Virus record (IMG/VR): IMGVR_UViG_2639762716_000004
Coordinates: 100,522-164,521 of that record
Length of the DNA stretch: 64,000 nucleotides
Direction: 5' to 3' (one strand)
From: a virus
Taxonomy: Duplodnaviria; Caudoviricetes
Below the pieces are notes generated by a model. The model saw only the letters and a list, made by a program, of their open reading frames with translations, made no database searches and was not told the origin of the DNA. The position numbers and the translations under genes are program-made. Below are positions 14,360 to 64,000 of the stretch, in pieces (the stretch's first letter is position 1; each line of letters opens with the position of its first letter).

Positions 14360-14474
14360 CCTTATTATACTTTTAATTTGTTTATATTGTATTATACAGA
14401 AAATGTTTAGTCAATAGGGATTTGAAAAGTCATTAAATTTATTTACTTTCATCCATCCCTATTGACATTGACTG

Positions 14475-15342: not shown

Positions 15343-16356
15343 TTAACGCATTTTAATGCCGTCTTTAATTCCAAGTTCTTTAGCGTAATACTTTTTAATC
15401 TCTTCTTCATTTACATACTGTTTGATGCTATAAATTTTTTTAGATAAGTCATCATACCGTTCACTTCTTTTGTTGATGATCTGCTCATAATCCTTTTTCT
15501 CTAATTTACCCTTTTCCTTATATATTTTATAGCCTTCATACAAAACACCAGATCTATTTATCCTTGTCGGATTTAAGAAAGGGTAATCATTAACTTCTGG
15601 GGCCAATACAGTCCTCATCGTATAAACAACAACATTAAAAGAAGATCTCTCTAAGTCTTTTTGGGTACTTGTTTTTTTATTCCGAATAACATATTCATTA
15701 TCCGCTAATGTAAACATACTCCCTTTTGATGATTCTGAAGCTCCATTCTTGTTATGATATTTATTTTCATCTGCTGAAAGAATGCATTCATTTAGACATT
15801 TATCGCTGACCTTGATTTCCCTTGAGCCATATTTATCATCATGCACAGTTAAGATGTTTCCGTTTTCTTTGGCTTTTAGAACATCGGCTTTTTTTAAATT
15901 ACGTATTTCACTACATCTATGCCCCTGAACTCCATCAAACAGCAGCATAAACATAGCTCTATCCCTATGATTTACTAAAGTGTCAATAATCCCTTCAAAT
16001 TCATTAGCAGTAATATAAAGTTTTTTTCCTTCGTCAATACAATTTTTAACATCTTCAATTGTCAGATCTCTAGACAAGTTTGTAGTGCCTTTAGTTATTT
16101 TTTGATAAATCGCCCAATCAATATACTTTGTAATGTGTGACCAGCAGCTCAATAAAGATGAAGTTGTAGATCTATTCAAGAGTGTCAAATAATCAAGGAT
16201 TTCATTAGAGTTAAAATCATAAAGATCTTTCTTTAAAAATTTTTCCACCTCTGCTCCTCTTCTAAATATAGAAAGGATTTGAGGCACCTCTTTCTCATTG
16301 ACTATTTCTAAAAATTTATTCTTTATATCCTCATTATATAATTTCATTATAAGCAC
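15343..16356 (-). CDS. yopR: Master repressor MrpR/SroF (integrase fold, catalytically degenerate)
   Basis: Integrase-like fold (RDRAMFMLLFDGVQG) lacking the canonical R and HxxR residues; last gene of the arbitrium-downstream operon. Confidence 0.8.
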   Translation of the reverse strand: MLIMKLYNEDIKNKFLEIVNEKEVPQILSIFRRGAEVEKFLKKDLYDFNSNEILDYLTLLNRSTTSSLLSCWSHITKYIDWAIYQKITKGTTNLSRDLTIEDVKNCIDEGKKLYITANEFEGIIDTLVNHRDRAMFMLLFDGVQGHRCSEIRNLKKADVLKAKENGNILTVHDDKYGSREIKVSDKCLNECILSADENKYHNKNGASESSKGSMFTLADNEYVIRNKKTSTQKDLERSSFNVVVYTMRTVLAPEVNDYPFLNPTRINRSGVLYEGYKIYKEKGKLEKKDYEQIINKRSERYDDLSKKIYSIKQYVNEEEIKKYYAKELGIKDGIKMR

Positions 16357-17798: not shown

Positions 17799-18899
17799 TT
17801 ATAATGGTTTAACCGCGAAAAAATGTAATGCCTTTCTTAAAGTTTGTTTATCACACTGCTCAAAAAAACGTAAGAATTCTTCTTTTGTAATGTCTTTCAA
17901 AATTGATACATCTAATTCTTCATCCATTATAATACCTGCAGTCTGTGAAATGTCTTTATTATCATTTAAATAACGTAGTGTTGTGTCGAATCTGCTGTGG
18001 TCTGCTTGCTTCATTGCAGCTCTATAATCTTTCCCTGTCGCCTCAAATACTTCAGTTATTCCCACACCCCTAAATGAATGAGGCACTATACCTTTTTCTT
18101 CTGGTATTCCAAGTCTTTTTAATGCACGCTTTAGAGATTCTCTAAAAGCGTCTTCAGAAAGTCCTTCAAACACTCTGTCAGTGTCTTTTGTTTCTTCGCT
18201 CCTTAATGCAAGTAACTGTTCATAGAACACTCTGTGTATACCTGTAGTACGCAATTTCGCCCCCTTGTCAATGACAGTGACTCTAAACCAATCTGGGTTT
18301 TCAGCAGAAACCTCAAAATCACACCATCTAACGTACAGGGCAGCCGATATTCTGAAAGATGATCTAAGCAAAAAACCTCCGAACAATTTTTTTAAAAGTG
18401 GTTTTTGCTTTTCATAAATGAACATATTTTCACAGATCATCTCTGCTTGAATTTGGGAAGTGTTTGCCCTAGTTCTCTTTATTTCAGGACTTCTTTTAAT
18501 TTTATAGAAAGCATCATCGTCTACAAATTCAGGATACAGTCTCTTGAGTTCCGAGTGAAGCGATTTCAATGCCGCGATCTTTCGATTAATTGTTGTGTTA
18601 GCTAATCCCTTCTGTGCAAGATGGTGTTTAAATGCCAAAACATCTGACCTTTTAAAAGACAGATGCTCCTCTTTTAAAAATTCAATTTCAGTTTTACAAT
18701 AAAATCTAAAGAACTGCTTTATATCACCTAAATAATTTATTGCTGTGTTTGATTGAAGTCCATACTTGGATTTTTTCTTTTGTTTTCTGTCAAATCCTTT
18801 AACATTCCCGGCCAAGCTTTCGGTGTCTTTCTCTCTTAAATAGGTTAAAATATCATTAAAGACCGAGTATTCCCGGATAGGCTTAACTTCAGCACCCAT
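17799..18899 (-). CDS. yopP: Tyrosine recombinase-family protein SroD
   Basis: Full catalytic set: SSFR, DKG, HSFR, DH...RY; synteny. Confidence 0.85.
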   Translation of the reverse strand: MGAEVKPIREYSVFNDILTYLREKDTESLAGNVKGFDRKQKKKSKYGLQSNTAINYLGDIKQFFRFYCKTEIEFLKEEHLSFKRSDVLAFKHHLAQKGLANTTINRKIAALKSLHSELKRLYPEFVDDDAFYKIKRSPEIKRTRANTSQIQAEMICENMFIYEKQKPLLKKLFGGFLLRSSFRISAALYVRWCDFEVSAENPDWFRVTVIDKGAKLRTTGIHRVFYEQLLALRSEETKDTDRVFEGLSEDAFRESLKRALKRLGIPEEKGIVPHSFRGVGITEVFEATGKDYRAAMKQADHSRFDTTLRYLNDNKDISQTAGIIMDEELDVSILKDITKEEFLRFFEQCDKQTLRKALHFFAVKPL

Positions 18900-19870: not shown

Positions 19871-21040
19871 TTACATTACCATTATCTCTAAAATTCCTTT
19901 GTCTACACCCAATTTCTCCAACTCTATTAAAGGCAGTCTACAAGAGAATTTATCACCACTCATTTTAAAATACTTAACTGATTTTAAGAAATAATCTTTA
20001 GAATTTTCAATAAGTCCTTTGTAATAATAATGCAATCCCAATTCATTAGCGTCTTGCTCTACAACCTCTAATTCAGAAAGCATTTTTTTGGCCTGTCCAA
20101 TATGCCCTTTTCTGATAAGATAATGAACAATCTCTTGTCTATCTATAATTTCCTTGGAGTCTACATTTAAATATTTATTTTCTTTATTCCATAAGTTCTC
20201 TAAAAAACAAAGGTTCCTAATAGCAAATCGTTCATTAAAGGTATCCCCTTTTACAACAGCTAACCCTTTTAGAAAACTACTTTTAGATTTCACATAATCA
20301 GTCATCATTAAAGAACTCCCATAGGTAAGAAGCGAGAAAAAATTTATTCTTTTTACATTTGAGTTTTCTATTCCATATTTGGCATACTCCCGTGCTTTTT
20401 CAAGCTCATTAGTTCCAAAAAAACAGTTAGCTAACAACAGCATATATCTACTTTTAAATGAATAATAAACATAATTCTGGTTCCTAATGATGTCTAAGAC
20501 TACGTTCTCACTCATATCTCTAAGTCTGGTAAACTGCCTTGATGCAAGTATGGAATACATAGGAATCAACCTTGAAAAGACCTTCATTTCAGGTGATTTG
20601 GGATTAATTTCTCCTAGAATCCTTATACACTCTTCAATGCTTATCTTTCCGTTATCAAGCTCTCTTTGAAGGGAGTATACCTTTCCCCATTCCTTACTGA
20701 TTGTATTATTAGCAGCTCTTAAGTTCTCGATATGAGTATCTAAAGCATCGTATAACTGATTTACACTTAAATATTCTAAACCTTGTCTTGCTGCAGACTT
20801 ATTAGGATCTAAAGTCAATATGTATTCACTCATTAATTCAAATTCATTATCAGGGGAGACCCTTTGAACAACATCTATTAAGCCTTGGATGTTATCCATT
20901 TCTTTTTTATCGTTAAAAATAAACTGATGAAACCCAGATGAATTAGAATATCCAGCTACTCTAGCGAGTTCTTTTTCGAGTCCTCGCTCTTCTTCGCATT
21001 TGTTCTTTAATAACCTTTTCAACTCCAATTCTTTCACCAC
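19871..21040 (-). CDS. aimR: Arbitrium receptor AimR (HTH + TPR)
   Basis: LARVAGYSNSSGFHQF HTH, ARQGLEY, NLCFLENLW, YFKMSGDKF; probable GTG start at 21040 with RBS AAGGGG. Confidence 0.93.
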   Translation of the reverse strand: MVKELELKRLLKNKCEEERGLEKELARVAGYSNSSGFHQFIFNDKKEMDNIQGLIDVVQRVSPDNEFELMSEYILTLDPNKSAARQGLEYLSVNQLYDALDTHIENLRAANNTISKEWGKVYSLQRELDNGKISIEECIRILGEINPKSPEMKVFSRLIPMYSILASRQFTRLRDMSENVVLDIIRNQNYVYYSFKSRYMLLLANCFFGTNELEKAREYAKYGIENSNVKRINFFSLLTYGSSLMMTDYVKSKSSFLKGLAVVKGDTFNERFAIRNLCFLENLWNKENKYLNVDSKEIIDRQEIVHYLIRKGHIGQAKKMLSELEVVEQDANELGLHYYYKGLIENSKDYFLKSVKYFKMSGDKFSCRLPLIELEKLGVDKGILEIMVM

Positions 21041-21172
21041 GTTTCCCCTTTTAATATACATTAATAATATCATGGCGCCCACTTTTGGTCAATTATTATT
21101 TTTAATTTGTTTATAATTTTTAAATGCACAGAAGATCACTCTCCCCTGCGCATCACAGGTTATATAATATCT

Positions 21173-21400
21173 TCAATTTTCTTTTTTCATTAAGATATTT
21201 AAGTGCTCTCTAAGAAACTTTTCGAACTCTTCATCATTATTAAGGTCATTGAGATCCGTTTCTTTCTTTAATATAATTTGCTGACTGTTATACTCACTTT
21301 TCAAAGTCTCAATAAGCTGCAGAAAGCTTTTGTCGTGCTGTCGCTCCCAGATTTGAGTAATCAACCCTGCTATTCTGTTAATTCGCTCACCGTCTCTCAT
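21173..21400 (-). CDS. Small protein, DUF1040/YihD-like pattern
   Basis: MRDGERINRI...QIWERQHDKSFLQLI; RBS GGAGG. Confidence 0.55.
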   Translation of the reverse strand: MRDGERINRIAGLITQIWERQHDKSFLQLIETLKSEYNSQQIILKKETDLNDLNNDEEFEKFLREHLNILMKKEN

Positions 21401-21443
21401 GAAACACCTCCAAATGACTTTAAAACAATTATTTTATTAAAAG

Positions 21444-22103
21444 TTACCATTGTACTGCCTCTTCAATATTTAAACCAAATACACATAAGAAAAGATCAAA
21501 TAGATATTGGCATTCCTTTTCACCACCACAATGCTCGGGTGATAATGCAACAGTAATCATATCCCAATCCCACATATATTTCTTTATGTTTTCTAATTGT
21601 GTCTTTATAGCATTTTGGGGCAATAAAACCGCATTGGAATTATAATCCATGTAGTTTTTATTAAAATAATCTAAATCAAGGTCAAGGATCATACTTGTCC
21701 CCTCTGTTTCTTTATACCACTTGTCTCTTAATATTTGTTGATAGTGATTAAGGGTGTATGCTCTCTGAAAATTAATGCTTTGCTCTACGTCTACTTCATC
21801 ATCACTAATCGCAAAACAACGTTCTATGGTACCCTTTCTTTGTGCAGGAATTATAAATTCTGCAATATCTAAATTCCTTGCAATTTCAATCGCTTTTTCT
21901 TCATTATCTATCCCTGTAATATCAATAGGATTGTCACAATAATCAAGATGTGCATCTATATGAATTAGGGACGCACCAGGTTTAATATATCCTCTTAGCC
22001 TTCCTATCTCCCATGCTGCAAACGCAAAGTTATGATCTCTTGAAACAAATATTTTCTTGTCTGGAAAATAAATACGATATTCTCTGGGGAACAATTCTTT
22101 CAA
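21444..22103 (-). CDS. UPF0489-family (arginase/deacetylase-fold) protein
   Basis: DHN, LIHIDAHLD, ILDLDLDYF, ITVALSP motifs. Confidence 0.8.
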   Translation of the reverse strand: MKELFPREYRIYFPDKKIFVSRDHNFAFAAWEIGRLRGYIKPGASLIHIDAHLDYCDNPIDITGIDNEEKAIEIARNLDIAEFIIPAQRKGTIERCFAISDDEVDVEQSINFQRAYTLNHYQQILRDKWYKETEGTSMILDLDLDYFNKNYMDYNSNAVLLPQNAIKTQLENIKKYMWDWDMITVALSPEHCGGEKECQYLFDLFLCVFGLNIEEAVQW

Positions 22104-57483: not shown

Positions 57484-58290
57484 ATGACCAAGAAAACAGT
57501 TATTCATGATACAGCAGATGTCTATTGGAAAAGAAAATCCGATGGACATGTAATTTCTGCTGCCGAAGCTCAATTGGCTTCTATTTCTCAATCAATTTCA
57601 GAAGAAGAGTTAAAAGGTGGTATTGGGAATAAAACTCTTTATCTCCTTCGTTCTGATAAGTCAATTGATGCAAAGGTTAAAAATGCATTCTTTGACATGG
57701 AATTCATGGCAATGACTCAAGGGGTTGCAATTGAAGAAAACAAATTCAATGTATTTGAACGTGAAGATGTAACAGTTGATACAGATAAGACAGTTAAACT
57801 ACAGAAAACTCCTGTTGGTACGGTATCACTTAAAAATAGCAAAGGTGCAACTGTACAAGCTGAATTTAAAGATGGCGTAGTTACGGTTCCTGAAGGTTTT
57901 GCTAAAAAGGGAGATGTACTAACTGCAGTATACAAAGTTGAAGTAACTGGTGAAACAGTTGAAATCAACACGAACAAATTCTCTGAAATGTACGAGCTTG
58001 AATATCACACTATTGAGTATGATCCGGACACTGGTGTTGTTTATAGTGACCTCTATATTCAATTTGACAAAGTTGCACCATCTGGTGAATTTGAAATGTC
58101 TCTTGAAAATGGCTCTGCCTACACGCCGGAGCTTTCATTTAAGGTTCTTGCAGCAGACAGCAAAGGTAAAATTGGTAGGTTCGCACGAGTACCTCGGATT
58201 GAAACCGGCACACCTGTAACCCCCTCCCCTGCTCCAGATACAGGTTCAGATACAGAAACTCAAACTAAAGCTGTAGGTATTGGTGACTAA
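57484..58290 (+). CDS. yomU: Major tail (tube) protein
   Basis: 268 aa, beta-rich, Pro/Thr linker tail; synteny. Confidence 0.7.
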   Translation: MTKKTVIHDTADVYWKRKSDGHVISAAEAQLASISQSISEEELKGGIGNKTLYLLRSDKSIDAKVKNAFFDMEFMAMTQGVAIEENKFNVFEREDVTVDTDKTVKLQKTPVGTVSLKNSKGATVQAEFKDGVVTVPEGFAKKGDVLTAVYKVEVTGETVEINTNKFSEMYELEYHTIEYDPDTGVVYSDLYIQFDKVAPSGEFEMSLENGSAYTPELSFKVLAADSKGKIGRFARVPRIETGTPVTPSPAPDTGSDTETQTKAVGIGD

Positions 58291-58329
58291 AATAATCAAA
58301 ATTTAAAACATAAGTAAGGAGAGAATATA

Positions 58330-58773
58330 TTGGCAAATCAATTTCTAAATGAAAGTAATGGTGTTTTTACTTCCTCAAGGGACAATGGGCAAGGTAAGCC
58401 TGTTACAGACGTTCATCTTTTAGGTATGGCTGATGGCATCCTTTCTCCACGTGTTATTCCAGAAACCTATCTTGAAAACGCAACGGTTAAAGCTGGAGAA
58501 TCGGTTTATCTGAATATTGACGCCAAAGGAAACGGCCTGGGATTGGGTATTTATTTAAATCAAAAGACTAATCTTACCGTTAAGCTTACCTATATCATCC
58601 CTGGAACAAGTAACTACACAATTAAAGAGTATGAAGATGTGTTGACACTCCAAGACAATGATAGGGGTCTTAATAAAGTAGATGTTCTCTCTTCATCTCC
58701 ACGAATCATGATTACAAACAGTGGAACTGCAGACGTCAGCATTAAAAGCCTGGTTATCACCCATTTTGCATAA
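58330..58773 (+). CDS. Putative virion accessory protein
   Basis: 147 aa, beta-rich; followed by a terminator at ~58786-58812. Confidence 0.65.
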   Translation: MANQFLNESNGVFTSSRDNGQGKPVTDVHLLGMADGILSPRVIPETYLENATVKAGESVYLNIDAKGNGLGLGIYLNQKTNLTVKLTYIIPGTSNYTIKEYEDVLTLQDNDRGLNKVDVLSSSPRIMITNSGTADVSIKSLVITHFA

Positions 58774-58861
58774 AGCGAGACAAATGAGGGGACTTCTCCC
58801 CTCTCCTTTTTTATTTAAATAAAATACAAGTTTTATACAAATCAATGTAAGGAGGCTGTAG

Positions 58862-61215: not shown

Positions 61216-61403
61216 AGTATCCTGATTATGCTACGATTAAACAATTTTATGATTGGGGCTGCTATGAAGACGATTCTATTATGAGAGATTACGTTGAGTG
61301 GGGTCATATTACTCCTGCTGAGTATGAAGAAATTACAGGCAGAAGTTATGATAAACCGTTCATTAATGTCAGTGTGGATTTAGGAATGTGTGTGACACCT
61401 TAA
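61212..61403 (+). CDS. yomP: XkdX-family protein
   Basis: IKQFYDWGCY...YVEWGHITPAEYEEITG. Confidence 0.85.
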   Translation: MKYPDYATIKQFYDWGCYEDDSIMRDYVEWGHITPAEYEEITGRSYDKPFINVSVDLGMCVTP

Positions 61404-61438
61404 GAGGTGTTTTTATTTTGGATTTAAAAGGAGGAAGC

Positions 61439-61924
61439 ATGATGACAACGCAAAAATTAACGCTCAGTCATATTAAAGAGGATAATAAAAAATACAATGA
61501 GAAGCAAAGAATTGAATTGAATGATCAATTTCACACTTATATTTATCCGAATTTCGATCCAACAAGAGTAAACAAAATGATCAAAACTCTTATTAAAGAC
61601 TATGTTGAGATTCAGTCGGAAAAAGGAGTCAAGACTGACTTAGGCGCTGGAGATTTAGCTTATCTCTATACGGTTATTGAATTTAGTGATATTTGTGATA
61701 TGCCTAAAACCTTGACATCTAAAGTTAAAATGCTTGAAGAAGTTGCTAAATCAGAGCATATCAGAACTATTCATGATTCATTCCCTGAAGAAAGTTTAAA
61801 AAAAGTTGAAGATGCTGCTAATGGTTTTGTTGATTTTATATCAAGAGCAGCAGATAAAAATGCAGACAAAATAAATGAAGATATCTTAAAAAAAGTTGAA
61901 GAGCTTACTCAAGAGGACAGATAA
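61439..61924 (+). CDS. yomO: Putative tail assembly chaperone
   Basis: RBS AAGGAGG before ATG 61439; synteny. Confidence 0.65.
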   Translation: MMTTQKLTLSHIKEDNKKYNEKQRIELNDQFHTYIYPNFDPTRVNKMIKTLIKDYVEIQSEKGVKTDLGAGDLAYLYTVIEFSDICDMPKTLTSKVKMLEEVAKSEHIRTIHDSFPEESLKKVEDAANGFVDFISRAADKNADKINEDILKKVEELTQEDR

Positions 61925-62343
61925 TGGCGGCTTACAAAGATCTCGCCATTTTAGTTCAGAAAGAAGCTTTAAAGGCCATCCAACAGTCAAATAGCAGCAC
62001 AAAGCAAACGTTAATTAAAACTGGAGAAGATCATGTTGAAACAGATGTTTATGACGCATATGATCCCCTAGTTTATGAACGGACGCATGAGTTAAAGAGC
62101 TCTTTTGTAACTGAGAATGAAGTAAACGGAATCTCATTGGATAACATTTGTGAAGATGATGGCCGTGATGTTGCAACGATTGTTGAAACTGGGCAAGGTT
62201 ATCAGTTCCCTGATGAACATGGTTATGGATATGGAAAACCAAGACCTTTCATGGCTAATACTGCTGAATCTTTAAAGGATGGCCGCTTAGTTGAAGCTGT
62301 GTCCAGAGATGTGAACAGGCTCGGACATAAGACAATAAAATAG
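61924..62343 (+). CDS. yomN: HK97-gp10-like tail completion protein
   Basis: YERTHELKSS...VETGQGY...PRPFM. Confidence 0.65.
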   Translation: MAAYKDLAILVQKEALKAIQQSNSSTKQTLIKTGEDHVETDVYDAYDPLVYERTHELKSSFVTENEVNGISLDNICEDDGRDVATIVETGQGYQFPDEHGYGYGKPRPFMANTAESLKDGRLVEAVSRDVNRLGHKTIK

Positions 62344-62357
62344 TCGGTGGTGGATTA

Positions 62358-63359
62358 ATGGCGAAAGAAATCAAAAAAAATATGATACGCCCCCGTGCAA
62401 AGAAACTGCCTGAAGTTACTGATGAAATGTGGTCTCAGGTTGATGAAGAGCACAGAAATTTAACACAAGAATTTTTAGACGCTCACTCATTCCGTGATAA
62501 AACAAGAAAACAGTACACCTCCTCCCTTCGGCAATTCTTCTGGTGGGTGCATAATTCTCTCAATGGGAAGAAATTATACAAAATCACTAAACGTGACTTC
62601 ATTAGGTATCAAAGTTTCCTAAAAAATAGGGGCATGTCTTCTAGTGGTATTGCGCTTAAAAAAGCTGGTGTTTCTTCTTTAAACAACTATATTGAAAACG
62701 TCGTGGCTGAAGATGATGACAATTATAAAACATTCAGGAACTTTACTCGTGGCCTCCCTGCTATTCCTAAGACAGTCACTTACGATAAAGTAAAGATTAC
62801 ATATGAAGACTATCAAACAATGATGCAAACACTTGAAGAAGATGAGAACTATTTAGGAATGGCCTGGCTTGCAACGGCTTTTAATGTAGGAGCAAGAAGA
62901 GCAGAAATCATTCAATTTAAAACAGAAATTTTAGACTACCCTATCCCTGAAGGGCAATCATATGTAATGTCCCATCAAGTCTTCGGAAAAGGTGGCGGTG
63001 AAGGAAAAGCTCTAAAATATATGATCAATACAGAAGCTCTACAATATTTGAAGTTATGGCATGAAAAACGTGGATATGACCACGAATACCTCTTTACCAC
63101 TACATATGGTGGACAACCAAAACAAATGTCAGAAACATGGGCTGATTATTTTTGCTCCGATGTTTTATCAGACATTCTTGGCCGTAGAATCAACCCTCAC
63201 CTTTTTAAAGCTTCCTGTATCACCTACTTACTCGAAGTCAAGAAAATCAAACTTGAACTTGTCAGTAAACACATTGCTCAACACGAAGATGTCTCAACCA
63301 CAGTCAAACATTATGATCTTCGTGATTTTAAAGAAGAAAAGAACCAGATTTTCATGTAA
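62358..63359 (+). CDS. yomM: Tyrosine recombinase inside the late operon
   Basis: GARRAE (R), GKG (K), PHLFK (HxxK), QH...HY. Confidence 0.88.
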   Translation: MAKEIKKNMIRPRAKKLPEVTDEMWSQVDEEHRNLTQEFLDAHSFRDKTRKQYTSSLRQFFWWVHNSLNGKKLYKITKRDFIRYQSFLKNRGMSSSGIALKKAGVSSLNNYIENVVAEDDDNYKTFRNFTRGLPAIPKTVTYDKVKITYEDYQTMMQTLEEDENYLGMAWLATAFNVGARRAEIIQFKTEILDYPIPEGQSYVMSHQVFGKGGGEGKALKYMINTEALQYLKLWHEKRGYDHEYLFTTTYGGQPKQMSETWADYFCSDVLSDILGRRINPHLFKASCITYLLEVKKIKLELVSKHIAQHEDVSTTVKHYDLRDFKEEKNQIFM

Positions 63360-63497
63360 AATCCCTCTTTTATTCAAAATCAAATTCCCTCTCTTGAGGG
63401 GTTTTGCTTTTGAGTGAAATGAAATTTTTGCAAAAAAGAAGGTATTTCCTCCTATTCTGTCGAATTGTAGTTATGTATTCAATTAAGGATGGGAGTA

Positions 63498-64000
63498 TGA
63501 AAATGAATTCAATTGGTATTAGAGTAACACCTAGGGAAATATACTATACGATTATTGATACTCATAACGATTCAAGTCTAACACAAAAACTTTCTATCTC
63601 TGCTGCTCTAGAAAATGATGTGCCGCGGCAGCTTTCACTAATTAGAACCACACTTTCATCAATAATTTATGACTATGATGTTTCTTACGCTGGAATTAAA
63701 ACCGCAGAAGGAAATGCCAAAAGTTATAATACTTTCAGAATTCATATCGAAGGAGTCGTCCAAGAACTCTTTGCTGACAGTACGGTTATTAGCTATTTTG
63801 CTGGCACTATTAATAGTCTAGCCTCAAGACTACGGATTCCCTCTAAAGTGGTATCAGGTTTTCTCAAAGGAGATAATAGTATAAAAATAAATCAGTGGAA
63901 ATCAGAATGGGATAAAATAAGCAATAAAGAACATAAAGAAAGTTTACTTGCTGCTTTAGCTGCTTTCCCTTGGCTTGAGGAAGGGGAAAAACATGCATAA
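63498..64000 (+). CDS. Accessory protein, possible RNase H/RuvC-like fold
   Basis: SIGIRVTPREIYYTII beta pattern, EGVVQE helix; RBS GGGAG; next gene's ATG overlaps its end. Confidence 0.55.

Follow-up and report, generated by a model that had tools for sequence, protein, structure and literature searches.

Phage genomes are mosaic, and it has long been asked how their modules are exchanged precisely at the borders of genes. Among the described systems, the boundary sequences of lambdoid phages and the PeSL regulatory cassettes (promoter plus stem-loop) of T4-type phages are short repeated intergenic elements that edge interchangeable genes. In the SPbeta group, the accessible part of PMC10516654 describes MrpR as a protein with a recombinase fold that has lost its catalytic residues and binds about 10 promoter sites, termed SPBRE, in SPbeta. 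Here we consider a 64,000-nucleotide stretch of DNA (hereafter the window) that forms the final 64 kb of a 164,521-bp provirus record, IMGVR_UViG_2639762716_000004. Near its right end the gene yomM, which encodes a tyrosine recombinase, ends inside a 28-bp palindromic element that is repeated through the window and is followed by accessory DNA. The reading that we favor, with confidence a little above even, is that this element is a conserved anchor or pivot of in-register module exchange, the yomM copy being one clear case: The same core and spacer would stay put while the DNA on either side gets replaced.

The palindromic element and its distribution

The TAA stop codon of yomM (63357-63359) lies within GTAAAATCCCTCTTTTAT at 63356-63373, as an earlier reading of the same DNA (the initial annotation) had claimed, and the further claim that this site is a repeated element likewise holds. 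The core pattern TAAAA-N6-TTTTA occurs in 19 copies in the window, where 1.24 are expected and 100 shuffles all stayed below 19. The copies are placed between genes of the same direction, with the start codon of the next gene mostly 19-28 nt 3' of the motif. In eight of the 19 the TAA of the core is itself the stop codon of the upstream gene, and in a further five a gene ends within 8 nt of the motif; because eight window genes have their stop codon in the motif, there is nothing special in yomM ending there.

Folding the half-sites onto one another gives the consensus T-Y-T-R-N-W-TAAAA, with each arm spanning about 11 bp and an overall layout of 11-6-11. This 28-bp geometry is equal to that of dif and similar to that of loxP. 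The outer consensus is found in each arm separately, and the downstream arm is equally strong or stronger, which rules out a mere reflection of stop codons. In a covariation test, complementarity between left and right flanks was at or below expectation at 8/8 positions, ruling out a motif that acts as an RNA or single-strand hairpin. Two arms of about 11 bp without hairpin covariation fit a double-stranded site, as for a protein dimer, and we infer from the sequence that the element is a two-fold symmetric double-stranded site bound by a dimeric phage protein. At the yomM copy the right outer arm, TTCAAA, matches the consensus. The outer arms are lineage-specific, reading T-Y-T in SPbeta-like phages and C-T-R-R-A in FADO and PBC2.

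The element is found well beyond the window. Counts of the core pattern, with the reversed pattern as control, are as follows:

SPBc2: 34 copies, control 2
SPR: 35 copies, control 0
Goe11: 34 copies, control 1
PBC2: 23 copies, control 1
Staphylococcus SPbeta-like: 17 copies, control 8
SPbetaL6: 43 copies, control 3
SPbetaL3: 36 copies, control 1
SPP1: 0 copies, control 2
SPO1: 0 copies, control 0
phi105: 0 copies, control 0

The strict 18-mer ATAAAA-N6-TTTTAT gives 30 copies in FADO, 18 in phi36, 17 in E3, nine in Perkons and only two in 949, with controls of 0-1. When inverted repeats with 5-nt arms are screened, the element ranks first in SPBc2, FADO, PBC2, phi36, SPbetaL6 and the record that contains the window; in Lactococcus phage 949 (NC_015263) the same screen finds no such repeat with at least eight copies. 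A literature search that included the accessible parts of PMC10516654, PMC8270828, 10.1101/2021.11.22.469490 and PMC4191935 found no description of the element; the 1999 SPbeta genome paper lies outside that coverage and may bear on it.

We note in passing two other repeats of the window. A leader, TTTTAATTTGTTTA (coding strand AAACAAATTAAAAG), stands just 5' of the ribosome-binding site before many early genes (for example at 14365, 18942, 23761, 28393 and 33547) and often adjoins the palindromic element. A separate repeat family, D1 (GACTAT-N5-ATAGTC), has six copies between 21068 and 34318 (at 21068, 25854, 28452, 30461, 33335 and 34259), which adjoin TTGAC-like and A/T-rich promoter-like sequence; matched by description only, D1 is probably the SPBRE, that is, the MrpR operator, of the present phage. 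The palindromic element itself is ruled out as SPBRE, given 34 copies in SPBc2 and MrpR peaks at about 10 promoter sites in the accessible part of PMC10516654.

Junctions at the element

The locus after yomM was compared across 13 phages, the present one included. The spacer of the yomM copy is identical in 13/13, and the 16-nt core is invariant in 12/13, phage L1 being short of one T; in its yomM DNA the present phage shares about 75% identity with SPBc2 and SPR. To the left of the core stand three unalignable haplotypes: A, in which the yomM stop is TAG plus T; B, with a yomM allele of 63% identity and 19-20 extra bases; and A+ins, with a 399-nt insert carrying a reverse gene (SPBc2 and phi3T). 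To the right stand five haplotypes, a to e, in each of which a terminator variant is tied to a cargo type. The three left and five right haplotypes occur in nine combinations, including all four pairings of A and B with a and b (A-a in SPR and L2, B-a in Goe11, A-b in L6, B-b in L7). The sites that discriminate A from B and a from b are at -1 and +2, the latter being the first difference on the right, so that the four-gamete pattern requires at least one crossover inside the core; the haplotype count suggests at least two crossovers at this copy. As read from these alignments, the crossover is pinned to the core of about 16-18 bp, which bears out the fixed junction downstream of yomM that the initial annotation had proposed to look for: The haplotypes re-assort around it.

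In mechanistic terms, the yomM copy would serve as the pivot between yomM and an accessory island made up of a terminator variant and its cargo, and yomM alleles and island types would have been re-assorted by crossovers confined to the core. Exchange would take place in register, an orthologous copy recombining with its orthologous copy between related co-resident phages, with no capture of free cassettes. A dimeric phage protein would bind the element, and recombination would occur at the bound site.

The window DNA matches that of SPBc2 and SPR in 14 and 17 pieces, respectively, at 65-82% identity, which is too diverged for mapping junctions; genome-wide comparison was therefore carried out on other SPbeta-like genomes (SPBc2, SPR, Goe11 and SPbetaL6, with phi3Ts added for the identity-shift, shared-core and isolated-island tests). 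Among 123 ends of homology blocks near a copy, 44 fall 0-2 nt outside the core edge, and only five at the far spacer border. Junctions occur at 18/26, 18/30, 20/29 and 22/36 of motif-bearing gene boundaries, compared with 55/190, 53/179, 58/172 and 56/175 of motif-free ones (local permutation test, p 0.0008-0.02), an enrichment that we retain as weak support. In 15 cases it is the downstream gene that the core accompanies, in eight the upstream gene, and 11/26 cores move both ways. Half of the cores shared by at least two of the five genomes (20/40) have different flanks on both sides. Isolated islands of identity contain a core in 49 of 262 instances, and the remaining 213 compare with 174 chance matches, so that cores make up most of the above-chance islands. 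Spacers at orthologous copies are conserved, with 13/342 changes vs 273/3911 in the flanks. Homologous blocks are collinear in 6/6 genome pairs (35/35, 31/31, 34/34, 38/38, 34/34 and 37/37), with no inversion or translocation among the blocks of the four genomes; replacement is thus in situ.

Several observations count against the element as a pivot of exchange. At the yomM copy a G precedes the left TAAAA, a place where 99% of half-sites have A or T. Once gene boundaries are matched for gap size and direction, the excess of junctions is weak (odds ratio 1.5-3.4, p 0.05-0.58 per genome). Boundaries at which identity shifts inside homologous DNA lie at a core in nine of 160 cases (2.4 expected), and 151 lie elsewhere. 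In laboratory hybrids of phi3Ts and SPbeta the intervals are too long to resolve, and one crossover interval, of 39 nt, contains no motif; in the accessible part of Dragos et al. (10.1101/2020.05.06.055103), 15/16 laboratory recombination sites are in homologous regions. The compared genomes are related, and their counts are therefore not independent events. Finally, a functional intergenic element kept by selection would likewise end homology blocks at its edge.

Candidate proteins and competing explanations

If the element is such a pivot, we give about equal weight to two acting agents, general recombination over short homology and one of the phage tyrosine recombinases, YomM or YopP. The features of the window on which this section and the next draw are as follows:

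61388..61924, plus strand: yomO-like tail-module gene, 178 amino acids, 35% identity to SPBc2 YomO over 156 amino acids; phrog_7383
61924..62343, plus strand: SPBc2p037-like gene immediately 5' of yomM, 139 amino acids, 56% identity to the SPBc2 protein; phrog_19892, E 4e-54
62358..63359, plus strand: yomM, Xer/Cre-type two-domain tyrosine recombinase with Lys for the second Arg, 333 amino acids, 85.9% identity to SPBc2 YomM
62918..62933, no strand: motif match within the yomM coding sequence, in the conserved protein stretch QFKTEIL
63351..63378, no strand: 28-bp palindromic element with the yomM stop codon; core TAAAATCCCTCTTTTA at 63357-63372
63386..63411, plus strand: intrinsic-terminator-like hairpin and T tract; extended stem about 63366-63421
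63420..63496, plus strand: island leader, with the ribosome-binding site of the first island gene at its end
63497..64000, plus strand: first accessory gene of the island, DUF3010/RuvC-like, 167 amino acids; phrog_3875, E 5.6e-21
58820..58835, no strand: another late-region copy of the element, in the order terminator, motif, ribosome-binding site of a yomS-like gene
17799..18899, minus strand: yopP-like tyrosine recombinase, 41% identity to SPBc2 YopP
15361..16353, minus strand: mrpR (yopR)-like gene for a recombinase-fold repressor, 38% identity to the SPBc2 protein, which itself matches PF22823/PF22822

The match at 62918..62933 is probably a by-product of the conserved FKTEIL codons. The copy at 58820..58835 has an ortholog before yomS in eight B. 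subtilis phages, and in one relative a replaced segment stops close to it, at 58786.

A megablast of 61900-64000 against the phage collection gave no match, and protein search was therefore used to find relatives of yomM. The best phage match is 86.8% identical, and the closest relative in the protein collection (94%) is named from Bacillus haynesii; 758 homologues are found at E <= 1e-10. High identity, together with a place after homologues of yomO (whose position two genes upstream of yomM is kept in relatives) and SPBc2p037, assigns the protein to the SPbeta orthologue group. Among sequence profiles, YomM matches the integrase family phrog_1 (E 1.1e-26), scores 26.9 bits against PF13495 (cut-off 27) and 45.8 bits against NCBIfam XerC (far below the cut-off of 335, the XerC/XerD family thresholds not being reached), and has no match to Pfam PF00589 at E <= 0.1, a domain that many of its homologues do carry. 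The AlphaFold (AF2) model (predicted local distance difference test score, 82.6) matches XerA (5hxy), Cre, Tn1549 Int, XerH and lambda Int in Foldseek with probability 1.0 and TM 0.42-0.48, and this modelled fold makes YomM a genuine tyrosine recombinase of the Xer/Cre type. Family alignment and motif spacing, rather than structure superposition, set the catalytic positions at R180, E183, K211/K217, H281-x-x-K284, H309 and Y319. The full set (R-I, E/D, K-beta, H-II, R-II, H/W-III, Y) is thus incomplete, R-II being Lys284; the initial annotation was correct in reading HxxK in place of HxxR. This lysine is invariant in 27/27 sampled close homologues, and distant ones (PBC2, 949, FADO) have HxxR, with Arg at the position. 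Cleavage and strand exchange by YomM are predicted, with a candidate site of fitting geometry. The yopP-like protein matches PF02899 (1.1e-08) and PF00589 (1.2e-05), both below cut-off. Both YomM and YopP keep their catalytic residues across hundreds of homologues, unlike MrpR. Our literature search found no paper with yomM as a whole word alongside subtilis.

In one explanation, which we regard as possible but doubtful, the 11-6-11 element is recognized by a dimer of YomM or YopP, with strand exchange taking place over the 6-bp spacer. With equal caution we consider the wider form of this explanation, in which SPbeta-like phages and related large siphoviruses have 20-40 mutually incompatible lox-like sites, with common 11-bp arms and a different spacer at each gene boundary, and one of the two recombinases uses them to swap modules in register when related phages come together in a cell. 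Because every copy has its own spacer, copies within one genome could not recombine and the genome would stay intact; in a relative that co-infects or already resides in the cell, the corresponding copy has a matching spacer, so that an in-register swap could take place. The 28-bp geometry with like arms and no hairpin covariation, the crossovers within the core at the yomM copy, the strict collinearity, the conservation of spacers at orthologous copies and the single spacer of all 13 yomM copies all speak for such a mechanism, as does the YomM fold, like that of XerA, Cre and XerH, with a conserved catalytic set that has K for R in the SPbeta clade. Further support comes from distribution. 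Only 39/217 SPBc2 open reading frames match at least one of FADO, PBC2, phi36 and 949, and YomM and YopP are common to SPBc2 and all four; an MrpR-like protein is shared by SPBc2 with FADO, PBC2 and phi36, but not 949. The B. subtilis phages SPP1, SPO1 and phi105 have neither a YomM match nor a motif copy.

Against a recombinase acting at the element stands phage 949, which has YomM-like and YopP-like proteins, lacks an MrpR-like one, and has no enriched inverted repeat. It is the sole exception to the co-occurrence of recombinase and motif, and the co-occurrence that the initial annotation proposed to check stands for the YomM-bearing phages and the three YomM-less ones and breaks down at 949; co-occurrence is also confounded by common descent. 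Exchange between unlike copies should give block ends at both the outer core edge and the far spacer border, so that the 44 and five observed fit only exchange between like copies. Most recent tract ends (the 151/160 above) are away from cores, K284 may weaken YomM catalysis, and both binding and recombination at the element are predictions. On sequence grounds, YomM and YopP appear to be the only conserved, catalytically plausible candidates with fitting site geometry; the results favor neither over the other and tie neither to the element.

An alternative that we hold just as tentatively is that the element is regulatory punctuation only: A DNA-binding protein of the phage, possibly one of recombinase fold that acts non-catalytically as MrpR does, would use it as operator or insulator. 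Selection would then preserve the element as its neighbours are replaced through rare illegitimate or short-homology events, junctions would abut it for that reason only, and YomM would have an unrelated late function such as resolution of genome multimers before packaging. The position of copies between co-directional genes, mostly 19-28 nt before the next start codon, is as expected of such a site. The same phage group offers a precedent in the recombinase fold of MrpR on a repeated element (accessible part of PMC10516654). The weakness of the gap-size-matched junction test points the same way, and so does the predominance of homologous recombination both in the laboratory (accessible part of 10.1101/2020.05.06.055103) and among recent tract ends. 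The place of yomM beside the tape measure gene is, moreover, independent of cargo: In 5/5 distant relatives (the Staphylococcus SPbeta-like phage, Mammaliicoccus phi36, B. cereus PBC2, Lactococcus 949 and B. subtilis FADO) a YomM homologue is followed by the tape measure gene after 17-96 nt that hold no cargo, and the gap is filled by accessory genes in 12 B. subtilis SPbeta-like phages, Geobacillus E3 and Psychrobacillus Perkons. Ancestrally, yomM would have adjoined the tape measure gene on its 5' side, with the island filling the gap later. A purely regulatory element is harder to reconcile with the four-gamete pattern, which selection alone does not make and which requires a crossover within 17-18 bp, with the share of cores among above-chance identity islands, and with the catalytic residues kept in YomM and YopP, unlike MrpR.

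The integron-like layout put forward in the initial annotation, with YomM as cassette integrase, the stop-codon site as attI and the downstream genes as captured cassettes flanked by the same motif, does follow the order of recombinase gene, repeated site and variable genes, and IntI is among the Foldseek matches at rank 45, but it is already contradicted, and very improbable, on second site, folded strand, cassette mobility and site position: A second motif copy is missing both from the promoter block before yomJ at the right edge and, the pivot copy excepted, from the interior of the islands in 12 phages, the arms lack the covariation needed by a folded single strand, no translocation or inversion occurs in 6/6 genome pairs, the site lies at the 3' end of the recombinase gene with about 34-43 copies spread through each SPbeta-like genome, eight window genes (8/19 copies) end in the motif, and 5/5 distant relatives have no cargo.

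The accessory island and comparison with known systems

Position 64000 is both the last base of the record and the stop codon of the first island gene. An isolate contig (run X9) spans the entire stretch and continues for 13,359 nt more, so that 64000 is the end of the record, not of the phage. No homologue of the SPBc2 genes beyond yomM, the tape measure gene included, is found anywhere in the record, and the interruption of the tail operon reported in the initial annotation is therefore visible only in relatives, where it does occur; the hairpin and non-structural gene that it placed after yomM, and the accessory DNA after the site, are as it described them. The stem-loop at 63386-63401 has the G+C-rich stem and T tract (tail TTTTGCTTTT) of an intrinsic terminator, which we predict it to be, and caps a longer hairpin (-26.6 kcal/mol, z -4.3). 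A terminator hairpin is present in 13/13 phages, its variant going with the type of cargo. Contigs of relatives from metagenomes and food samples part from the window sequence at 63419 in three runs and at 63464/5 in two, with loose ends at the island leader in runs X14, X16 and X17; unlike cargo thus starts after the terminator. Run X17 is an RNA library available as contigs only, which neither show transcript ends nor exclude DNA in the library; its contig covers yomM and continues past 63419 into different cargo, and its lack of cover at 63552-64000 is due only to the strain carrying different cargo.

A leader similar to that at 63420..63496 occurs in SPbetaL6/L7. The first island gene matches phrog_3875 under the name 'RuvC-like', its nearest Atlas clusters are named DUF3010 (score 0.96), and it has no match in Pfam or NCBIfam; PADLOC gave no match for it or for YomM. 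Its positional counterpart in SPbetaL6/L7, which is followed by a gene for a Ser/Thr kinase, is 32% identical. Across phages the cargo includes yomL/yomK, an insertion sequence (phi3T) and a DUF3010/RuvC-like gene with a PD-T4-6-like Ser/Thr kinase (L6/L7). In the L6/L7 islands (L007:5149-6701 and L008:5176-6728) these two genes form an overlapping pair, the kinase matching Pfam PF00069 (7e-41), PADLOC mad6 (7.5e-45) and PD-T4-6 (2e-35). Judged by these matches, the pair may be a two-gene defence or exclusion module, and the window phage may carry the same pair, its record ending before the place of the kinase.

At the right border of the island, B. subtilis phages have a conserved promoter-like block before yomJ. 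It comprises TGGTATAAT with an upstream TTGGAA-like hexamer (L001:8220-8270) and stands in the same place in 10 other B. subtilis phages, which suggests that the tape measure part of the tail module may have its own host-type promoter; the accessible part of PMC8270828 describes the late cluster as a single YonO transcript. In Geobacillus virus E3 (L009:5023-5238) a 66-amino-acid GP29 gene lies between yomM and a similar core, TAAAACTCCCCTTTTA, which contains the stop codon of GP29 and not that of yomM.

Some further observations concern other parts of the record. A second variable late spot lies at 58245-58785, where the X17 contig has 488 other letters in place of 541 nt that include an open reading frame at 58330-58773, and the X9 and X16 contigs have 3,664 extra letters after 58290, the 37-nt stretch 58254-58290 being repeated. 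A 50-nt direct repeat (53286 and 58241) stands at the ends of two tail-region genes. Outside the window, the first ~48 kb of the record (G000:C1:1-48000) are not SPbeta-like and hold a yomR/XkdV-like tail gene (20742-21635) and, at 1222-2235, a long coiled protein that weakly matches a tape measure; this part is probably a second prophage fused into one provirus call.

What the locus offers is one defined symmetric 28-bp element that marks module boundaries across a group of large Bacillus-type phages, together with two catalytically plausible recombinases that are kept even where a serine integrase performs integration. SPbeta in its laboratory host Bacillus subtilis 168 allows the question to be tested directly, and there is a practical rule for finding accessory or defence islands in SPbeta-like prophages, namely to search between a core copy with its terminator and the next promoter. 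If a recombinase does act at the element, these phages would have their own site-specific means of driving mosaicism without disturbing gene order; if that link fails, the element remains an undescribed regulatory site.

Set beside the integron (IntI, attI, attC), the locus is alike in having a tyrosine recombinase gene beside a specific site and then variable, often defence-type genes. It differs in that the site is 3' of the gene, the cargo has no attC-like site, the arms show no folded-strand covariation, replacement is collinear and in situ, and copies number in the dozens. With Xer/dif and Cre/loxP, YomM shares the simple two-domain fold and the element the pair of inverted arms, about 11 bp each, flanking a 6-bp spacer, and, as with spacer-incompatible lox variants, exchange is seen only between copies of the same spacer; here, however, a genome carries 19-43 copies that all differ in spacer, and YomM has Lys for the second Arg and scores far below the XerC/XerD cut-offs. 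MrpR and SPBRE (accessible part of PMC10516654) belong to the same phage group and likewise pair a recombinase-fold protein with a repeated intergenic element, but the present element has a different sequence, 34 copies in SPBc2, and a place mostly between genes within operons. Prophage accessory and defence hot spots share the fixed slot between conserved genes and the variable contents (the phi3T insertion sequence, the L6/L7 kinase), whereas here the left border is the pivot core with its terminator and the right border a promoter block. Like the linkers of phage mosaics, the element edges interchangeable genes and is concentrated in the region of many small early genes; unlike them, it is 28 bp long with strict two-fold symmetry around a free spacer, and it is common to Bacillus, Geobacillus, Psychrobacillus and Mammaliicoccus phages that share little DNA.

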